Below the pieces are notes generated by a model, which was given only the letters and a program-made list of their open reading frames with translations, had not been told where the DNA came from and ran no database searches. Below are positions 11,034 through 16,458 of a DNA stretch of 64,000 nucleotides, piece by piece; the stretch's first letter is position 1, and every line of letters starts with the position of its first letter. Made by a program: the position numbers and the translations under genes. The stretch is from an uncultured Methylococcaceae bacterium (lineage in GTDB: Bacteria > Pseudomonadota > Gammaproteobacteria > Methylococcales > Methylomonadaceae). The stretch lies in contig CAIPPE010000303.1 of assembly GCA_903866825.1 (NCBI GenBank), positions 1,663-65,662 of the forward strand, written 5' to 3'.

Positions 11034-11128
11034 AAAACAGGGTAAATTGAACACCACTAATAATTATGTTGATAGCTAATGATAAGCATGTTAGCTCTCG
11101 GGCAGCCTCCTAGGGAAAAGAGCGGCTC

Positions 11129-14100
11129 TCACTTCATTGAGACTTGCTTACGAGTTGAATGCTCTATACACATTTTTGAAGTATGCTGGTTAATCATTTG
11201 AATACTTAAAAAGTGACCTATTGCAAATTCTGTAGCCAACGAACAAATTAGTTCAGTCATTAAAGTTATCCCTATAAATCTTGTAAATAGATTGAACAAT
11301 AGCATTGCTAACTTTACTTCCGCTTTAACACCATCATTACATTGCATAGAAACATAGCAACAAACATTGAAAACCCTTTCAGCATAACCGTTATTTCTTG
11401 GATTATTAATTCTTAAACCATTTAAAATTTCACCATCCAAAAAAGCCTTCGCTAGCACGGGACTCAATATAGAAGACAAGACTTCAACAGCAGTATTTGT
11501 ATCTATGAACGCTTTTGGGTATCGATAAATTAGTTCTGCTAAAAAATAATAGGCATGTTTATCATTTGACGAACTTAATAAGTTTACGTCCTGAAATGTA
11601 AGCGCATACGGGATACATTCTAGTGCATGCAAATACAGACCTTCTTTTTTTTGTTCAAAACTTAATGAACTCCCCATTTCGACAAATAAGTTAAAAGTAT
11701 CTACCGATTTCCCACCAAATGAGTGAAAAATCTGCGCCAGGATTCCATCAGTGCATAACCAAGGAATATCGTTGCTAATAGATAATTTAATACTGGAATA
11801 GACTGAATCATCAACCATGTCACGAATGCGAAGAATTAATGGCGGCATATCGGCTATTGCCGGAGTCACTACTTCAGATTCAGTAATAATCAAATTAAGG
11901 ACATCTATAATTTGACGATGTTGAGGGGATTGTTTTATATCTTCAGCCGTCACCCGAAATAATCCACCTCCTGGTCTAATGCCCATTGTTAAATAGTCTT
12001 CACGATTTATGTCATTTAACCAATCCTCAATAATATATTTTGTTTCCTGAGTTATAACAAAGTCAATTGACGTTTTTGTCATCCCAAATGCCAAACCCGT
12101 AAGGGCTAAATAGGCAATGGCATAGACATCTAGAATGACTTTTGTCGGAGTGCGTTCGCCAAAGTTAGGTAATGAATGTTTAATGGAGTTCTTTGTTGTC
12201 CACTGTATTAACGCGGCTTTGACAGGATCACCTCGGTTTTGAAAATGTCCCTTACAGCTTATTGGCATAACTGGATTTTTGAAGATTTCATCATCCTGAT
12301 GATATTGAGTTCGAACAAGCTTTTCTTCAAAAGTTGCTAACATCTCATCTGGATCAGTTGGCATTTGAAAGGCGTGAAAGCAATCGCTACCGTCATTCTG
12401 TTTTTGTCTTAATTGTGATGAAATACGATAGGCGGCAACATAAGCGGGTAGGCGTTCAATTAACTTATAATCGTACATACCGTTCCGTATTACTTGCTCA
12501 GTCTCCAAATTGTTAAGAAAAGCACCCAAAGGTGAATTTATATCTAAAAGATCTGGGTATTTTAGTTCAGAGTTATCAATTAATAATTTGGTATGTTGAA
12601 GATTGTCTTCGGTGTAAACGACACCTGCGATACAATCGCCAACTCTTTCAGAACCTAGCAAGGCTCTATTATTAGCATCACCTATCGTTAGACTTAAATG
12701 AAAATCGATCATTGCTTTTGCACAATCACTAGGATTTTCAATAAACCATGCAAGTATTATCTTTTCAGCTCGATTAAAATCACCTGTTTTAGCAATTTCA
12801 ATCAAAAGAGTAAGTGCAATATCTGATTTTTTTGATAACACCTCAGGCGGAATACCTTGCAGAACCGAACGCACAGTATCATCAGAATGCTCATCTTTTC
12901 TATGTAGACGAACTAAAGCAAGCCAACCATCCAATAAAGTATTATTAATTTCAATTGCTTTTTCAATAGCTTGTATTGCTTGCGGATATTGATCTAATTG
13001 CTCAAACACCGCAGCTTGAATTATCCATAATTCACTATCCCATTCACTTTCATTAATCTCTCTCAAAATAGCTGAAAGCGTAGCCACCTGTTCACTGAGC
13101 AACAAAGCTCTTAAATAAAGTCTAGTTATTGGCGACGCCCAAATATCACACGAAGGCATCAATGGTTTTAAAAGAGCGCAAACAATAAAAGAAAGCCCTG
13201 AATGTTGTAACAAACTTTCAGCTAGTTCAATTAATATAAAAGGATTTAGCTTTGCTAATTTTTCCTGGTAAGTGATAAGAAACTGCTCAGCTTGATCCCT
13301 TATATTTTCAATTTCTGCTCGATTATTATTGCTGCTGGATAAAACTATAAGCTTGAGTTGCAAATTACGAAAATCAGCCTCTAATGACTCTTCACTAACA
13401 ATTACCCCACCTGACTTTCCCCATTGACAGATTTTATTGATTTCAAAGTCTTTTAAAATAACAAATTTATCAACGGAAATTTCTTTTGAGGAGGATAGAT
13501 CACTTAATAGCTGTTCACGATATTCCTTATTCTCATTAGCTTGAATATGGTTACGCACAACACCATCTATAATTTTTGACGAATTTTTAGTATAAATGTT
13601 ATATAGTTGAGCGGCTATATCTGAGTGTATTTCTTCAAATTGTCCTACATATTTCCAGCAAATATCCCTTAATTCCTTATGTTCACCATTCATATACTGC
13701 AAGCTCAACGCCGCAACACTAAACAAGCGTTTATCCTTTCCGTTAGATTCATTAATCAACGAAACTAATTCTTCAACTAGATCAATAAGCTCAGCTTTTA
13801 ATTTTGACGTAATAGTCCAGAAAAAGGTTTCTTGCAATTTGCTATTTAAAAGAATTATTCCTTTCGCAAGGACAACTAATACTTTACTGTTGAATGATGG
13901 GAATACATCATTTAGACGATTAGCTGCTTTTAATCCCAATGCCAGATTTTCTATTCTGAAAGACCCACGAACAATGCCATTAAGCTCACTTTCTTCTAGG
14001 TTAATTTTATTTTTCTCATATCCACTTTCTAACTCATCAGCAGTTGCGATAAGTTCAAAAAATGCTTCTTTAGAATAAGAGCCAGGGAGGATGATATTAA

Positions 14101-14509
14101 GATAGCGCTCTCTGGCATCAGTACTTCGATTGCTTTCTACCTCTAATCGAATCAATGTCGCTAGACATAAATCGCGAGTTAAATCATCAGATGGTGTTTT
14201 AAGAAATGTAATGAGCGAACTTAAAAGTTTCTTTTTGTCTTTATCGTCCAGTAAATTTAAGTGAAACGAAAGGCTATCAAGAATAATTTCGCTATTTATA
14301 TCAAGTGTGCTGAGGGCTTTGATAGTTTCTAAGCGATTTTTCGCTGAATCCGGATTTTTTCCGCGAATGTCGGAGAGTATAAGTTCAATAGATTTTTGGA
14401 GTGCTTCAGGAGCGATGCTTTGATACTGATTTACAATTTTATCCCTTGCTATATTATCACCCGATCCACTATGAAGCTGATTAGGGATATTTGGCTCTAT
14501 TGAACTCAT
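11129..14509 (-). CDS. 1126-aa protein of unknown function: N-terminal pairing motif, TPR-like helical array, GreA/B-C-like segment, PIN-like module
   Basis: Uninterrupted 1126-codon ORF. AAGGAAG lies 7 nt upstream of the ATG, which begins 3 nt after the stop of the upstream ORF. No Walker A motif found by eye. Confidence 0.85.
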   Translation of the reverse strand: MSSIEPNIPNQLHSGSGDNIARDKIVNQYQSIAPEALQKSIELILSDIRGKNPDSAKNRLETIKALSTLDINSEIILDSLSFHLNLLDDKDKKKLLSSLITFLKTPSDDLTRDLCLATLIRLEVESNRSTDARERYLNIILPGSYSKEAFFELIATADELESGYEKNKINLEESELNGIVRGSFRIENLALGLKAANRLNDVFPSFNSKVLVVLAKGIILLNSKLQETFFWTITSKLKAELIDLVEELVSLINESNGKDKRLFSVAALSLQYMNGEHKELRDICWKYVGQFEEIHSDIAAQLYNIYTKNSSKIIDGVVRNHIQANENKEYREQLLSDLSSSKEISVDKFVILKDFEINKICQWGKSGGVIVSEESLEADFRNLQLKLIVLSSSNNNRAEIENIRDQAEQFLITYQEKLAKLNPFILIELAESLLQHSGLSFIVCALLKPLMPSCDIWASPITRLYLRALLLSEQVATLSAILREINESEWDSELWIIQAAVFEQLDQYPQAIQAIEKAIEINNTLLDGWLALVRLHRKDEHSDDTVRSVLQGIPPEVLSKKSDIALTLLIEIAKTGDFNRAEKIILAWFIENPSDCAKAMIDFHLSLTIGDANNRALLGSERVGDCIAGVVYTEDNLQHTKLLIDNSELKYPDLLDINSPLGAFLNNLETEQVIRNGMYDYKLIERLPAYVAAYRISSQLRQKQNDGSDCFHAFQMPTDPDEMLATFEEKLVRTQYHQDDEIFKNPVMPISCKGHFQNRGDPVKAALIQWTTKNSIKHSLPNFGERTPTKVILDVYAIAYLALTGLAFGMTKTSIDFVITQETKYIIEDWLNDINREDYLTMGIRPGGGLFRVTAEDIKQSPQHRQIIDVLNLIITESEVVTPAIADMPPLILRIRDMVDDSVYSSIKLSISNDIPWLCTDGILAQIFHSFGGKSVDTFNLFVEMGSSLSFEQKKEGLYLHALECIPYALTFQDVNLLSSSNDKHAYYFLAELIYRYPKAFIDTNTAVEVLSSILSPVLAKAFLDGEILNGLRINNPRNNGYAERVFNVCCYVSMQCNDGVKAEVKLAMLLFNLFTRFIGITLMTELICSLATEFAIGHFLSIQMINQHTSKMCIEHSTRKQVSMK

Positions 14510-14512
14510 CGT

Positions 14513-14845
14513 TTATCTTCCTTGATGAATTACTTTATCTCTGCCTACATTATCACCACTGCCGCTGTGAGACTGAATAATGGTATTGCCCTCTGCTATT
14601 GGTTTGATATTTTCAAGGAGTGAAATTAGTTCGGGCGAAGCCTGGATTCTCTTTTCAATTGCAGACTCGCTCATTCCATCAGTTAAACTTAGTTTATTAA
14701 CCTCACCAGCAAGTACTGATAATGAAGAATCATCTATAACCCATTCTTTTAATCGATCTTTAAGATTGTCTGCTGTCAGCAAAAAACCGCATTTGAGTAA
14801 GTCGTAAGCGATACCAGATAAAATAGTTGACGTTAAAAAGTCCAT
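14513..14845 (-). CDS. 110-aa helical protein whose C-terminal ~25 aa repeat the N-terminal motif of the downstream 1126-aa protein
   Basis: GAAGGA about 5 nt upstream of the ATG. C-terminus …IIQSHSGSGDNVGRDKVIHQGR compares with the neighbour's N-terminus …NQLHSGSGDNIARDKIVNQYQ. Confidence 0.75.
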   Translation of the reverse strand: MDFLTSTILSGIAYDLLKCGFLLTADNLKDRLKEWVIDDSSLSVLAGEVNKLSLTDGMSESAIEKRIQASPELISLLENIKPIAEGNTIIQSHSGSGDNVGRDKVIHQGR

Positions 14846-15174
14846 AAAATTCCTTCATTAAAAAACTCATATATTGGGTCAAAACTTTGGATTTCAACAG
14901 TTTGAGAAACCATAGGATTCCGTAGGATTGATCGGTTTTGTTCCTTTGTTTTTAATGCAGTCATTCGCTACATCTTACAATGACTCGCAACTATCTACAG
15001 CTTATTAACAAATCAATATCTATCAATAAGTTGGTCAAATAATTACAAAAAAACACTCAGAATAGATTGTGTCTTTAAGTGCTATTTAAAAATAAATCAG
15101 ATAGTTATATCTATTATTAAATTAAAGGACTATTGTCTAACTGTGACAACCCACCCATTAACCAAGGAAAGATA

Positions 15175-15789
15175 ATGAAAACGATTATAGCGCTGTTAGA
15201 TTTTGTAACCATTCCGATTAAAACCAAACCGACATACTTTAAGAATGTCATTACCCACCTAACCAACAACCCCGTCTATACGACCCCAGACATTCCTTTA
15301 GAGACTCTTCAGTTAGCCGTTGATAATCTTGAGCTTGCCATACTGGCCGCAGCAGATGGTAGTCATCCTGCTATATCTGCCATGCATGACAGCGCTGATG
15401 CCGCTACATTACTTTTTAAAAACACGGTAGGGTATGTTAATAGAATAGCCAATGGTAATTTAACTAAAATCTTAAGCAGTGGATTTAACGCTTCCAGTCA
15501 GCCTGCTGCCAGAGATAAACAGGTATTAACCCTGAGTGATGGCCCGCGTTCGGGTACTGCAAAAGCAACAACTCAACCGGTTGAGCACGCGGGTGCTTAT
15601 TCTTGGGAGAAAAGGATTACATCTGCTGCCGGTGTACAAGGCGTGTGGGGACCTGCTGGCCTTACCACTCAAGCAAACATTCTTATTGAAGGTCTGGAAG
15701 TAGGGTCAATTTTAGAAGTTAAAGTCTTAGCAGTAACAACCACAGGCGTTACCGATTTTTGCGTCCCGGTATCAAAGCTAATCAACTAA
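15175..15789 (+). CDS. FN3-like protein with helical N-domain (paralogue of 48272-48883)
   Basis: ATG at 15175 preceded by AAGGAAAG; the ORF-track TTG start at 15133 is less likely. Shares NNPV[YF]..PD, A[IA]I.AA.DG.H, Y[VI].RIA.G…ILSSGF…S.QP and a C-terminal beta-rich (…Y.F.V.A…) domain with the paralogue. Confidence 0.7.
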   Translation: MKTIIALLDFVTIPIKTKPTYFKNVITHLTNNPVYTTPDIPLETLQLAVDNLELAILAAADGSHPAISAMHDSADAATLLFKNTVGYVNRIANGNLTKILSSGFNASSQPAARDKQVLTLSDGPRSGTAKATTQPVEHAGAYSWEKRITSAAGVQGVWGPAGLTTQANILIEGLEVGSILEVKVLAVTTTGVTDFCVPVSKLIN

Positions 15790-15924
15790 GGGCGTTAAAC
15801 GCTTAAACTGATAATCTGACAGGCATTCCACTTATGAAGAACACCTGCCAGATTAAGTTTTAGGCAAATAATAATACCTAAATGACACTTTAAGATACCT
15901 TAACAAAGGTTTATAACGTTAAAA

Positions 15925-16258
15925 AGCCACTTAGTGATATTTAAATCAGGCTTATTGATATCTTAAGCAAGCTTTTAGATATCAATTCAACACTTTTAGA
16001 TATCAAAGTCCTTCTTTTAGATAGTAAAGCAACCCTTATTGATATCTAAACCCCCGATTTAATACTACAAGCAGGTTTTTAGATATTAACCCCGTCCTTT
16101 TAGGTTTTAAAAACTGTCGATTTAATAAATAAAACCGGGTTATTGATATCACTCCCGCCCTTCAAGGTATCAAAAACTCCCTTATTGACGCAACCCCCAC
16201 CCGTTTTAATATCAAAAACTACCTTATTAATACCTTAAGCGGCTTTTAACAGACATTC
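15925..16258. repeat. Array of about 16 degenerate tandem repeats, 21-bp period, core CTTTTAGATATC / CTTATTGATATC
   Basis: Hand-indexed core positions: 15933, 15954, 15977, 15998, 16019, 16038, 16061, 16081, 16102, 16124, 16142, 16164, 16184, 16208, 16226, 16248. Mean spacing is 315/15 = 21.0 bp. Confidence 0.85.
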
Positions 16259-16458
16259 AGCTCCCACTAATACTCGGAATTAGTGAAAATTGAAACCCAA
16301 AATTTCGATATGTGACCTTAGAAATCCTATAAAATGTAGCATTGTCTTTGTATTTATGAACCAATTAATATGTTTAATATTATAACTGCTGTAAATGGAA
16401 AACTTGATGTCCCTTTAATCCGGGAGTGGACTGTACAGCTTTATAAAACCGCTTTTTT

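Follow-up and report, generated by a model that had tools for sequence, protein, structure and literature searches.

The window, by which the whole 64,000-nt stretch of Methylococcaceae DNA analysed here is meant, carries on its minus strand a gene pair that belongs to the GapS6a/GapS6b family and that very probably represents an antiphage abortive-infection system of the Bab/Agp (GAPS6) type. The first gene (14513..14845), a homologue of gapS6a/bab, encodes an effector of 110 aa, in which a helical Babybell domain (Pfam HetE-N) is followed by a BASS11 motif at the C terminus. The second gene (11129..14509), a homologue of gapS6b/agp, encodes a 1126-aa sensor of the NCBIfam GapS6b family, in which a BASS11 motif, a helical/TPR region, a GreA/B-C-like domain, a PIN domain and a conserved C-terminal region follow one another from the N to the C terminus. 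An earlier sequence-only reading of this DNA had described two adjacent ORFs of these sizes with AAGGA-type ribosome-binding sites; both ORFs were found, with 3 nt separating the stop of the small ORF (14513) from the start of the large one (14509), and such sites are present upstream of each start. Both proteins are named by NCBIfam and Pfam family models, with scores above the curated cut-offs. Identity to the characterised E. coli proteins is only 45% for the effector and 30% for the sensor, the latter over the full length of the 1094-aa GapS6b/Agp (E 4e-153). All residues required in Bab/Agp are kept in the window pair, namely D2, G11, Y14, D15, Q91, D98 and N99 of the effector and N19, S659, L665 and D794 of the sensor. 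By analogy, the window pair would behave like E. coli Bab/Agp. Neither window protein was matched by the PADLOC 2023 models; this library is older than the description of the system, and its silence is therefore not evidence against a role in defence.

The system is already known, and the window pair is a further member of low novelty, not a new variant. It adds little to a family already covered by curated models in NCBIfam and Pfam, by a crystal structure and by two experimental papers. The abortive-infection system Bab/Agp of E. coli ECOR25 has been characterised experimentally: the BASS11 motif common to both proteins forms amyloid and relays the signal of the sensor Agp to Bab, an effector that targets the membrane (Ibarlosa, ... 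Saupe, “Amyloid signaling in antiphage defense,” bioRxiv 10.1101/2024.11.07.622273). The window pair resembles it in gene order and protein sizes (110/1126 aa in the window versus 109/1094 aa in E. coli), in the Babybell fold, in the location of BASS11 at the effector C terminus and the sensor N terminus, and in the TPR/GreA/B-C/PIN architecture of the sensor. GAPS6 (GapS6a/GapS6b), found in GMT islands of Vibrio, consists of two genes that lower coliphage plating; no mechanism was proposed for it past the TPR and PINc domains, and neither the shared motif nor amyloid was mentioned (Mahata et al., bioRxiv 10.1101/2023.03.28.534373). According to NF047935 and NF047936, the window pair falls into the same protein family as GAPS6. 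In E. coli, the gene encoding a protein identical over residues 1-81 to the chain in PDB 9H9V, the Bab crystal structure, is annotated gapS6a and is followed by a 1094-aa gapS6b, and these lengths agree with those given for Bab and Agp. GAPS6 and Bab/Agp are thus the same system, and the amyloid mechanism of one therefore explains the other. In this way the data connect two bodies of work between which there are no citations. The sequence-only reading had taken the lack of a P-loop in the large partner and the proteobacterial host as signs of an undescribed variant. This suggestion was not upheld: the non-NLR receptor is a TGP protein as described by Kaur et al. (2021), a Babybell/TGP pair whose members share an amyloid motif has been known from a gammaproteobacterium since 2024, and the same family was already reported as antiphage under the name GAPS6, NCBIfam naming both window proteins.

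The small protein scores 136.6 bits against the NCBIfam model NF047935 (GapS6a, cut-off 90) and matches Pfam PF20701 (HetE-N) with an E-value of 2.5e-36. Its globular Babybell domain, residues 1-82 (14600..14845, minus strand), matches the sequence of 9H9V, “Babybass,” with an E-value of 1.3e-15, and the AF2 model of the protein superimposes on this structure with a TM-score of 0.90 and an rmsd of 1.9 Å, so that the fold check proposed earlier for the N-terminal domain of the small ORF led to E. coli Bab by both sequence and predicted fold. Hydrophobic helix 1, at about residues 3-18 of the Babybell domain and likewise encoded on the minus strand, lies in the region carrying D2, G11, Y14 and D15, and the sequence of the N-terminal helix is MDFLTSTILSGIAYD, with these four residues kept. 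All four are needed for killing by Bab, and mutation of the residues equivalent to G11, Y14 and D15 abolishes Bab function (Ibarlosa et al.). Among 29 effector homologues, G11, Y14 and D15 are invariant. The small and large proteins gave no match to the Pfam families HeLo, Helo_like_N or NACHT.

The effector motif QSHSGSGDNVGRDKVI occupies residues 91-106 (14528..14575, minus strand), near the C terminus of the 110-aa protein, and the sensor motif QLHSGSGDNIARDKIV occupies residues 11-26 (14432..14479, minus strand), near the N terminus of the 1126-aa protein. Alignment to Bab indicates that the window motif corresponds to BASS11 as defined by Ibarlosa et al. The sharing of one motif by the two termini, as originally noticed, is far above chance: 11 of 16 residues are identical, and a local alignment of the last 35 aa of the small protein with the first 35 aa of the large one scores 76, versus 19.1 ± 4.0 (maximum 45) in composition-preserving shuffles of these termini, none of 5000 reaching the observed value. 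Among the 29 effector homologues, Q91, G97, D98, N99 and K104 are invariant. Q91, D98 and N99 are the counterparts of Bab Q92, D99 and N100 in the alignment to Bab, and mutation of any of these three Bab residues abolishes aggregation or defence (Ibarlosa et al.). Across 21 GapS6b homologues, G15 of the sensor motif never varies, and conservation reaches at least 90% at G17, D18, N19 (which corresponds to Agp N12) and K24.

At the nucleotide level the two copies share 32 of 48 positions. The statement that they differ at most synonymous positions holds for five of the 11 identical residues (His, Ser, Gly, Ser and Arg), the other six being encoded by the same codon; in particular, the second Gly, listed as GGT/GGG, is GGT in both copies. 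The conclusion drawn from it, that conservation acts on the peptide and not on the DNA, holds and is better backed by the occurrence of the motif in both partners of 28 distant pairs. Recent duplication and assembly artefact were considered as origins of the repeat and rejected, because only 32 of 48 nucleotides are shared and the motif is kept across distant pairs.

Comparison of homologous loci extends the published picture: in about 28 species the motif is kept by the two partners alike, and one genome shows a coordinated motif swap. Both members of 28 gene pairs, each from a different species, carry the pattern Q.H.G.GDN[VI]..[DN]K; its absence from one partner had been named beforehand as an outcome that would speak against the proposal. 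It is kept in pairs whose sensors share only 21-30% overall identity. The co-variation anticipated within pairs was also seen, motif identity being 10.1 of 16 within pairs versus 9.3 across pairs (permutation p 0.00045), which is a modest effect in a test that ignores phylogeny. A different motif is shared by the Babybell protein and the sensor, a bona fide GapS6b at 1140 bits, of Planctobacterium marinum; it scores 57 versus 24.7 ± 4.9 in shuffles, and in this one genome both partners switched motif together. A further extension concerns the partners of the effector: Babybell proteins with the same BASS11 motif are joined to unrelated, non-TGP partners, namely CTD9/ABC-3C, AAA+TPR and a 930-aa protein with no annotation, and the motif also occurs in pairs of neighbouring genes from other phyla. 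These observations bear on the idea that the two copies are a relic devoid of a signalling role, left when an ancestral HetE-N-TGP fusion split into two genes or when a local duplication copied the linker. Such histories are plausible in themselves, since Kaur et al. list HetE-N among the N-terminal effector modules of TGP proteins. As an account of the motif, however, this idea is extremely improbable and already contradicted by the comparative data, that is, by conservation in both partners despite the low identity of the sensors, by the differences between the copies at one third of nucleotide positions, by the unrelated partners and the pairs in other phyla, by the joint swap in P. marinum, and by the absence of any fusion longer than 1000 aa among the best 150 representative Babybell proteins.

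The large protein covers the NCBIfam model NF047936 (GapS6b) from position 1 to 1089 of 1089, with a score of 1188.9 bits (cut-off 850). The statement that it has no NACHT or NB-ARC module was borne out: no match to NB-ARC, NACHT or AAA models was obtained in Pfam and NCBIfam. Its long helical region contains a detectable TPR unit at residues 493-535 (12905..13033, minus strand), with weak matches to Pfam TPR_1, TPR_14 and TPR_2. A family profile built from 21 full-length sensors and compared with PDB sequences matched consensus TPR structures over its positions 487-533 with an E-value of 1e-19; TPR proteins were the only ones found in this search, GreA and PIN being absent from the matches.

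The evidence for the GreA/B-C-like and PIN assignments consists of Pfam PF20698, the conserved residues and a fold search of moderate confidence. A beta-rich GreA/B-C-like domain is placed at about residues 626-701 (12407..12634, minus strand), with the motif SPLGxxL (S659, L665). Pfam GreA_GreB gave no match in the 1126-aa protein. Foldseek search with an AF2 model of residues 580-940 returned GreA/GreB 2PN0 as the best match (probability 1.00, 74 columns, E 0.11), with GreA 9A7T also among the matches; the weak E-value is due to the query being a two-domain fragment modelled from a shallow alignment of 11 sequences. The depth of the alignment and the confidence of the model (mean pLDDT 72.6) were limited because the word-index homology search with this fragment returned 10 proteins. 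Evidence for the GreA/B-C-like fold in the window sensor is accordingly moderate, while homology to Agp across this region is unambiguous, with S659 and L665 aligning with Agp S628 and L634 and L665 invariant in the 21 GapS6b homologues. Mutation of Agp S628 or L634 abolishes defence (Ibarlosa et al.).

The PIN nuclease domain spans residues 792-929 (11723..12136, minus strand) and is recognised by Pfam PF20698 (PIN-TPR-GreABC, E 9.2e-18). Two of its acidic residues, D794 and D921, are shared by all 21 sensor homologues, D794 aligning with the catalytic Asp of Agp, D762, and the PIN proteins 1O4W and 1V8O were matched by the 580-940 model in Foldseek (probability 0.90-0.97). The invariance of these aspartates, the conservation of the GreA/B-C-like motif and the dual model of Kaur et al., given a stronger nuclease weighting, are all consistent with a large protein that acts as a self-sufficient first line of defence, docking on RNA polymerase through GreA/B-C and cutting phage transcripts with PIN, the small protein being a dispensable back-up. 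This is nevertheless very unlikely, given that E. coli Agp had no Bab-independent activity against the phages tested and that defence in E. coli needed the motif in both proteins. It also complements signalling through the shared motif more than it competes with it.

In the signalling mechanism favoured here, the 1126-aa TPR-GreA/B-C-PIN (“TGP”) protein would serve as the sensor, and we infer that in the window pair it probably watches, via its GreA/B-C-like domain, RNA polymerase taken over by a phage. Upon activation, presumably by oligomerisation, its N-terminal BASS11 motif of 16-25 residues would take a cross-beta (amyloid) fold and template the same fold in the C-terminal motif of the 110-aa protein. 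Refolding of the effector would then detach its hydrophobic N-terminal helix from the small bundle of helices that makes up the Babybell domain, and the freed helix could attack the membrane, so that the infected cell is killed or arrested ahead of phage progeny. For the E. coli orthologue, fibrils, phage-induced sensor-dependent assembly and relocalisation to the membrane were reported, and beta-breaker mutations led to the loss of defence (Ibarlosa et al.). Homology to E. coli Bab/Agp thus strongly supports the earlier proposal of a small helical executioner and a motif-matched receptor acting by templated folding as a death or defence module. That reading of the mechanism, made from raw sequence alone, was essentially right and offers a useful calibration.

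Alternatively, the motif could be a homotypic docking tag of non-amyloid nature, holding the two proteins in a soluble complex, for example by pairing of beta-strands, with activation by release or conformational change and no prion-like templating. The sequence data show a conserved, matched motif, as any homotypic interaction would predict, and the effector tail (residues 85-106) is predicted to be disordered in the AF2 monomer model (pLDDT < 50), which is uninformative on the assembled state. Such a tag is unlikely, however. The motif of the E. coli orthologue forms fibrils that bind ThT and Congo red and whose beta core is rigid according to solid-state NMR, its aggregates are transmissible in the manner of a prion, and it can be functionally replaced by the unrelated amyloid motif of HET-S/NWD2; the residues critical in the E. 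coli motif are also kept in the window motif.

The window pair also resembles several other known systems. Among these are the TGP conflict systems, for which a TPR-GreA/B-C-PIN core was defined, with HetE-N among the variable effectors (Kaur, Iyer, Burroughs, Aravind, eLife 2021, PMC8195603). The constant sensor core is the same in the window pair and the HetE-N module occurs in both, whereas in the systems of Kaur et al. fusions within one gene predominate and adaptors of the EAD type were predicted, the window effector being a separate gene coupled through a short shared motif. The same effector/receptor logic is found in the Bell/BASS-NLR pairs of Actinobacteria and Cyanobacteria, in which the C-terminal amyloid motif of a helical membrane-targeting effector is repeated at the N terminus of the adjacent receptor (Dyrka et al., 2020, bioRxiv 10.1101/2020.01.06.895854). 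Unlike these, the window receptor is a TGP protein and not an NB-ARC/NACHT NLR, the effector domain is the shorter Babybell, and the motif, by its match to Bab, probably corresponds to BASS11 and not to BASS1-10. The similarity to HET-S/NWD2 of Podospora anserina is mechanistic only, consisting in amyloid templating from the receptor N terminus to the effector C terminus and release of a membrane-active N-terminal helix. This system is functionally interchangeable with Bab/Agp in published swap experiments (Ibarlosa et al.); it is, however, eukaryotic, uses another motif family and has no detectable sequence homology to the window pair (no HeLo/NACHT match).

Unlike the E. coli pair, which resides in a prophage defence hotspot, the window pair is located within an H4MPT formaldehyde-oxidation cluster of a Methylococcaceae-type methylotroph, and its motif tail reads RDK instead of the GNK of Bab. 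The methylotrophic nature of the host, as stated earlier, is confirmed by the Fae, MCH and CitG-like genes adjoining the pair. The two genes stand alone inside this housekeeping methylotrophy cluster, outside any recognisable GMT island in contrast to GAPS6, and no prophage, GMT island or visible defence island was found around them, unlike the E. coli and Vibrio copies. It is highly improbable that this setting reflects domestication of the pair as an amyloid-controlled switch for death or growth arrest that answers transcription or C1-metabolic stress instead of phage, or a sensor trigger different from that of Agp. The genes flanking the pair were sought at the loci of Methylobacter, Methylovulum and Methylomonas and none was found, which means that the family has no conserved insertion site. 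A search of the flanks for direct repeats that would mark an insertion found none, and scanning the surroundings of the pair for promoters and terminators yielded fewer sites than the shuffles did. The pair forms a lower-GC insert, and the same arrangement occurs in two independent metagenome contigs.

The pair consists of two adjacent genes on the minus strand: a 110-aa ORF (14845..14513) encoding the putative effector and a 1126-aa ORF (14509..11129) encoding the putative sensor. The stop of the first is separated from the start of the second by 3 nt, and AAGGA-type ribosome-binding sites, as had been reported from sequence inspection, are present upstream of both starts. The small protein ends in ...TIIQSHSGSGDNVGRDKVIHQGR, and the large one begins with MSSIEPNIPNQLHSGSGDNIARDKIVNQ. 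In 16-residue windows anchored on the GDN core, the effector copy of the motif, QSHSGSGDNVGRDKVI (residues 91-106; 14575..14528, minus strand), and the sensor copy, QLHSGSGDNIARDKIV (residues 11-26; 14479..14432, minus strand), are identical at 11 of 16 residues and at 32 of 48 nucleotides. When the C-terminal 35 residues of the small protein were aligned locally with the first 35 of the large one, the score was 76, against 19.1 +/- 4.0 (maximum 45) for shuffled sequences, 0 of 5000 of which reached that value; the motif proposed for the two termini is thus real. The accompanying argument, that the peptide rather than the DNA is conserved, reached the right conclusion but was somewhat overstated: codons differ at five of the 11 identical residues and are the same at six, and the second glycine, for which a GGT/GGG difference was claimed, is encoded by GGT in both copies.

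The small protein matches Pfam HetE-N (PF20701; E 2.5e-36) over its full length and NCBIfam GapS6a with 136.6 bits (cut-off 90), while its residues 1-82 match the structure of "Babybass" (PDB 9H9V; E 1.3e-15). An AlphaFold2 model, built from an alignment of 29 homologues, superposes on 9H9V with a TM-score of 0.90 and an rmsd of 1.9 Å; the tail (residues 85-106) has pLDDT below 50. The large protein matches NCBIfam GapS6b with 1188.9 bits (cut-off 850) across the whole model, and contains a PIN-TPR-GreABC domain (Pfam; residues 792-929, E 9.2e-18) and weak TPR matches at residues 493-535. Neither protein is covered by a PADLOC 2023 model. Comparison of the full-length sensor profile with structures by sequence returned TPR structures only. 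Residues 580-940 were modelled from an 11-sequence alignment (mean pLDDT 72.6), and the top Foldseek matches in the PDB were Nitrosomonas GreA/GreB (2PN0; probability 1.00, 74 columns) and the PIN-domain proteins 1O4W and 1V8O (probability 0.90-0.97). The query covers two domains, which makes the E-values of all three weak (~0.1). The modelled central domains agree with the published GreA/B-C and PIN architecture, and taken alone provide moderate evidence for it.

Such TPR-GreA/B-C-PIN (TGP) proteins were predicted to sense hijacked RNA polymerase through their core and to cleave the transcript or, failing that, to release an effector (Kaur et al., PMC8195603). A Vibrio two-gene system, GAPS6 (WP_248387294.1 and WP_248387295.1), reduces coliphage plating by orders of magnitude; only TPR and PINc domains are given among its features (Mahata et al., bioRxiv 10.1101/2023.03.28.534373). 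Two proteins of Escherichia coli ECOR25, Bab (109 aa) and Agp (1094 aa), were characterised by Ibarlosa et al. (bioRxiv 10.1101/2024.11.07.622273); neither preprint cites the other. Of 5426 complete E. coli genomes, 22 carry the pair by megablast with an enterobacterial locus as query; it is annotated there gapS6a and gapS6b. In strain EcPF15 (L064, 6001-9627) the products are 109 and 1094 aa, and the former, gapS6a in RefSeq, matches the 9H9V chain exactly over residues 1-81, which identifies GAPS6 and Bab/Agp as the same system.

The window effector is 45% identical to the EcPF15 109-aa protein (E 2e-29), and the sensor 30% identical to the 1094-aa protein over its full length (E 4e-153). 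All functionally defined residues are conserved: Bab D2, G11, Y14, D15, Q92, D99 and N100 correspond to D2, G11, Y14, D15, Q91, D98 and N99 of the window effector, and Agp N12, S628, L634 and D762 to N19, S659, L665 and D794 of the sensor, allowing for EcPF15 numbering being that of the Agp paper plus one. G11, Y14, D15, Q91, D98 and N99 do not vary among 29 effector homologues, nor do L665, D794 and D921 among 21 sensors. Homology thus assigns the window pair to an already known system, Bab/Agp (GAPS6).

In that system the motif, BASS11, assembles into ThT- and Congo-red-positive fibrils whose beta core is rigid by solid-state NMR; it spreads as a prion-like aggregate and, together with Bab, is functionally interchangeable with HET-S/NWD2-R0 (Ibarlosa et al.). 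Bab/Agp protects against T5 and some Drexlerviridae by abortive infection; T5 infection leads to Agp-dependent motif assembly and relocation of Bab to the cell periphery. Defence is abolished by either beta-breaker (Bab N100P, Agp N12P), by the Bab helix-1 mutation G11K, by S628L or L634P in the Agp GreA/B-C domain, and by the PIN mutation D762N (same preprint).

Scanning one genome per species gave 63 loci; at 26 of them a GapS6b homologue is encoded downstream of the gene for the Babybell (HetE-N) effector. In 28 pairs, Q.H.G.GDN[VI]..[DN]K occurs both at the Babybell C-terminus and at the N-terminus of the next gene product; these include Methylobacter, Methylovulum, Methylomonas, Psychrobacter, Marinobacter, Enterobacter, Pectobacterium, Pseudomonas, Shewanella, Vibrio, Moritella, Marinomonas and Rahnella. 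Co-variation, proposed as a check on the pairing, was found: motif identity averaged 10.1/16 within pairs versus 9.3 for non-partners (permutation p 0.00045, phylogeny ignored). The clearest case is Planctobacterium marinum (L032, 6232-6480), where BASS11 is absent both from a bona fide GapS6b (1140 bits) and from its Babybell partner; the two instead have another common terminal motif, IGxNV...Q...V..G..T.N (VSQSSEIGNNVYIQGNGNVTVGGITVN versus VNQSAGIGINVNAQPDSIVNIGNLTIN; score 57, shuffles 24.7 +/- 4.9, 0/5000 reaching 57), a coordinated swap in both partners. Degradation accounts for the apparent exceptions: the Pantoea septica sensor (L029, 6250-6480) starts with an intact motif followed by a stop codon, with the rest in another frame, and L010 (6250-6330) lacks a sensor and has an effector cut short in its tail.

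These comparative data, together with the published orthologue experiments, disfavour three other explanations of the window pair: docking of the termini without amyloid, a relic of gene fission, and defence by nuclease activity only. An amyloid-templated abortive-infection module is the best explanation. The sequence-only reading was correct, by homology to Bab/Agp, in proposing amyloid-type effector/receptor signalling. Its suggestion of an undescribed variant does not hold, since the non-NLR sensor and proteobacterial host on which it was based are both already features of the published system.

At five loci of Methylobacter, Methylovulum and Methylomonas (L001, L003-L006) the sensor motif reads QNA[TS]G[DE]GDN, with Ala for the otherwise conserved His, and the effectors retain QHHSGSGDN, making the partners asymmetric; the window pair has His in both.

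Other partners encoded after Babybell/BASS11 proteins are 186-aa CTD9 (ABC-3C system) proteins, an AAA+TPR protein and an unannotated 930-aa protein, in which the motif reads GHN rather than GDN (L008, 915-1804; L017, 6001-6890; L009, 2585-5722; L016, 6001-9116; L036, 6001-8696). Adjacent gene pairs with BASS11-like motifs are also present in Bacteroidota, Cyanobacteria, Campylobacterota and Paceibacterota. Judged from these sequences the motif is modular, in agreement with the report that BASS11 accompanies other immune domains (Ibarlosa et al.); the main text of that preprint names neither CTD9 nor the 930-aa partner as associated with BASS11. Searching 1.84 billion representative proteins with a profile yielded 305 Babybell clusters; almost all are stand-alone proteins of 100-125 aa, with no Babybell-sensor fusion among the best 150. 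In a Bacteroidales MAG (L055, 2438-6105), a BASS11-like motif recurs in three genes in a row: it sits C-terminally in a 124-aa segment, N-terminally in an 863-aa segment and close to the C-terminus of a 239-aa segment, an arrangement that suggests one receptor with two effectors.

The pair is an insert of lower G+C (window 11050-16450), 33-37% compared with 39-44% in the flanks, and lies within an H4MPT formaldehyde-oxidation cluster, bordered at one end by the genes for a RimK-type ATP-grasp protein and MCH and at the other by those for a CitG-like protein and Fae. The remaining window genes are housekeeping (SMC, LigA, PntAB), with no defence island visible, and no flanking insertion repeats were found around the pair. 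The low G+C, the site and the surroundings indicate a solitary insert, probably horizontally acquired. Two metagenome contigs (L065, L066) carry a 95%-identical effector at the same site and in the same arrangement; in the Methylobacter, Methylovulum and Methylomonas genomes the pair is at other sites. Divergent from the pair and likewise located between the H4MPT genes is a 218-aa ORF (15133-15789, plus strand) with no Pfam or NCBIfam match; L065 and L066 have partial ORFs at its position. Between this ORF and the CitG-like gene, an intergenic array (15930-16260, plus strand) comprises about a dozen degenerate ~21-nt units, their cores resembling CTTTTAGATATCAA and CTTATTGATATC, spaced at 21, 21, 21, 62 and 63 nt, and looks like an iteron or operator array.
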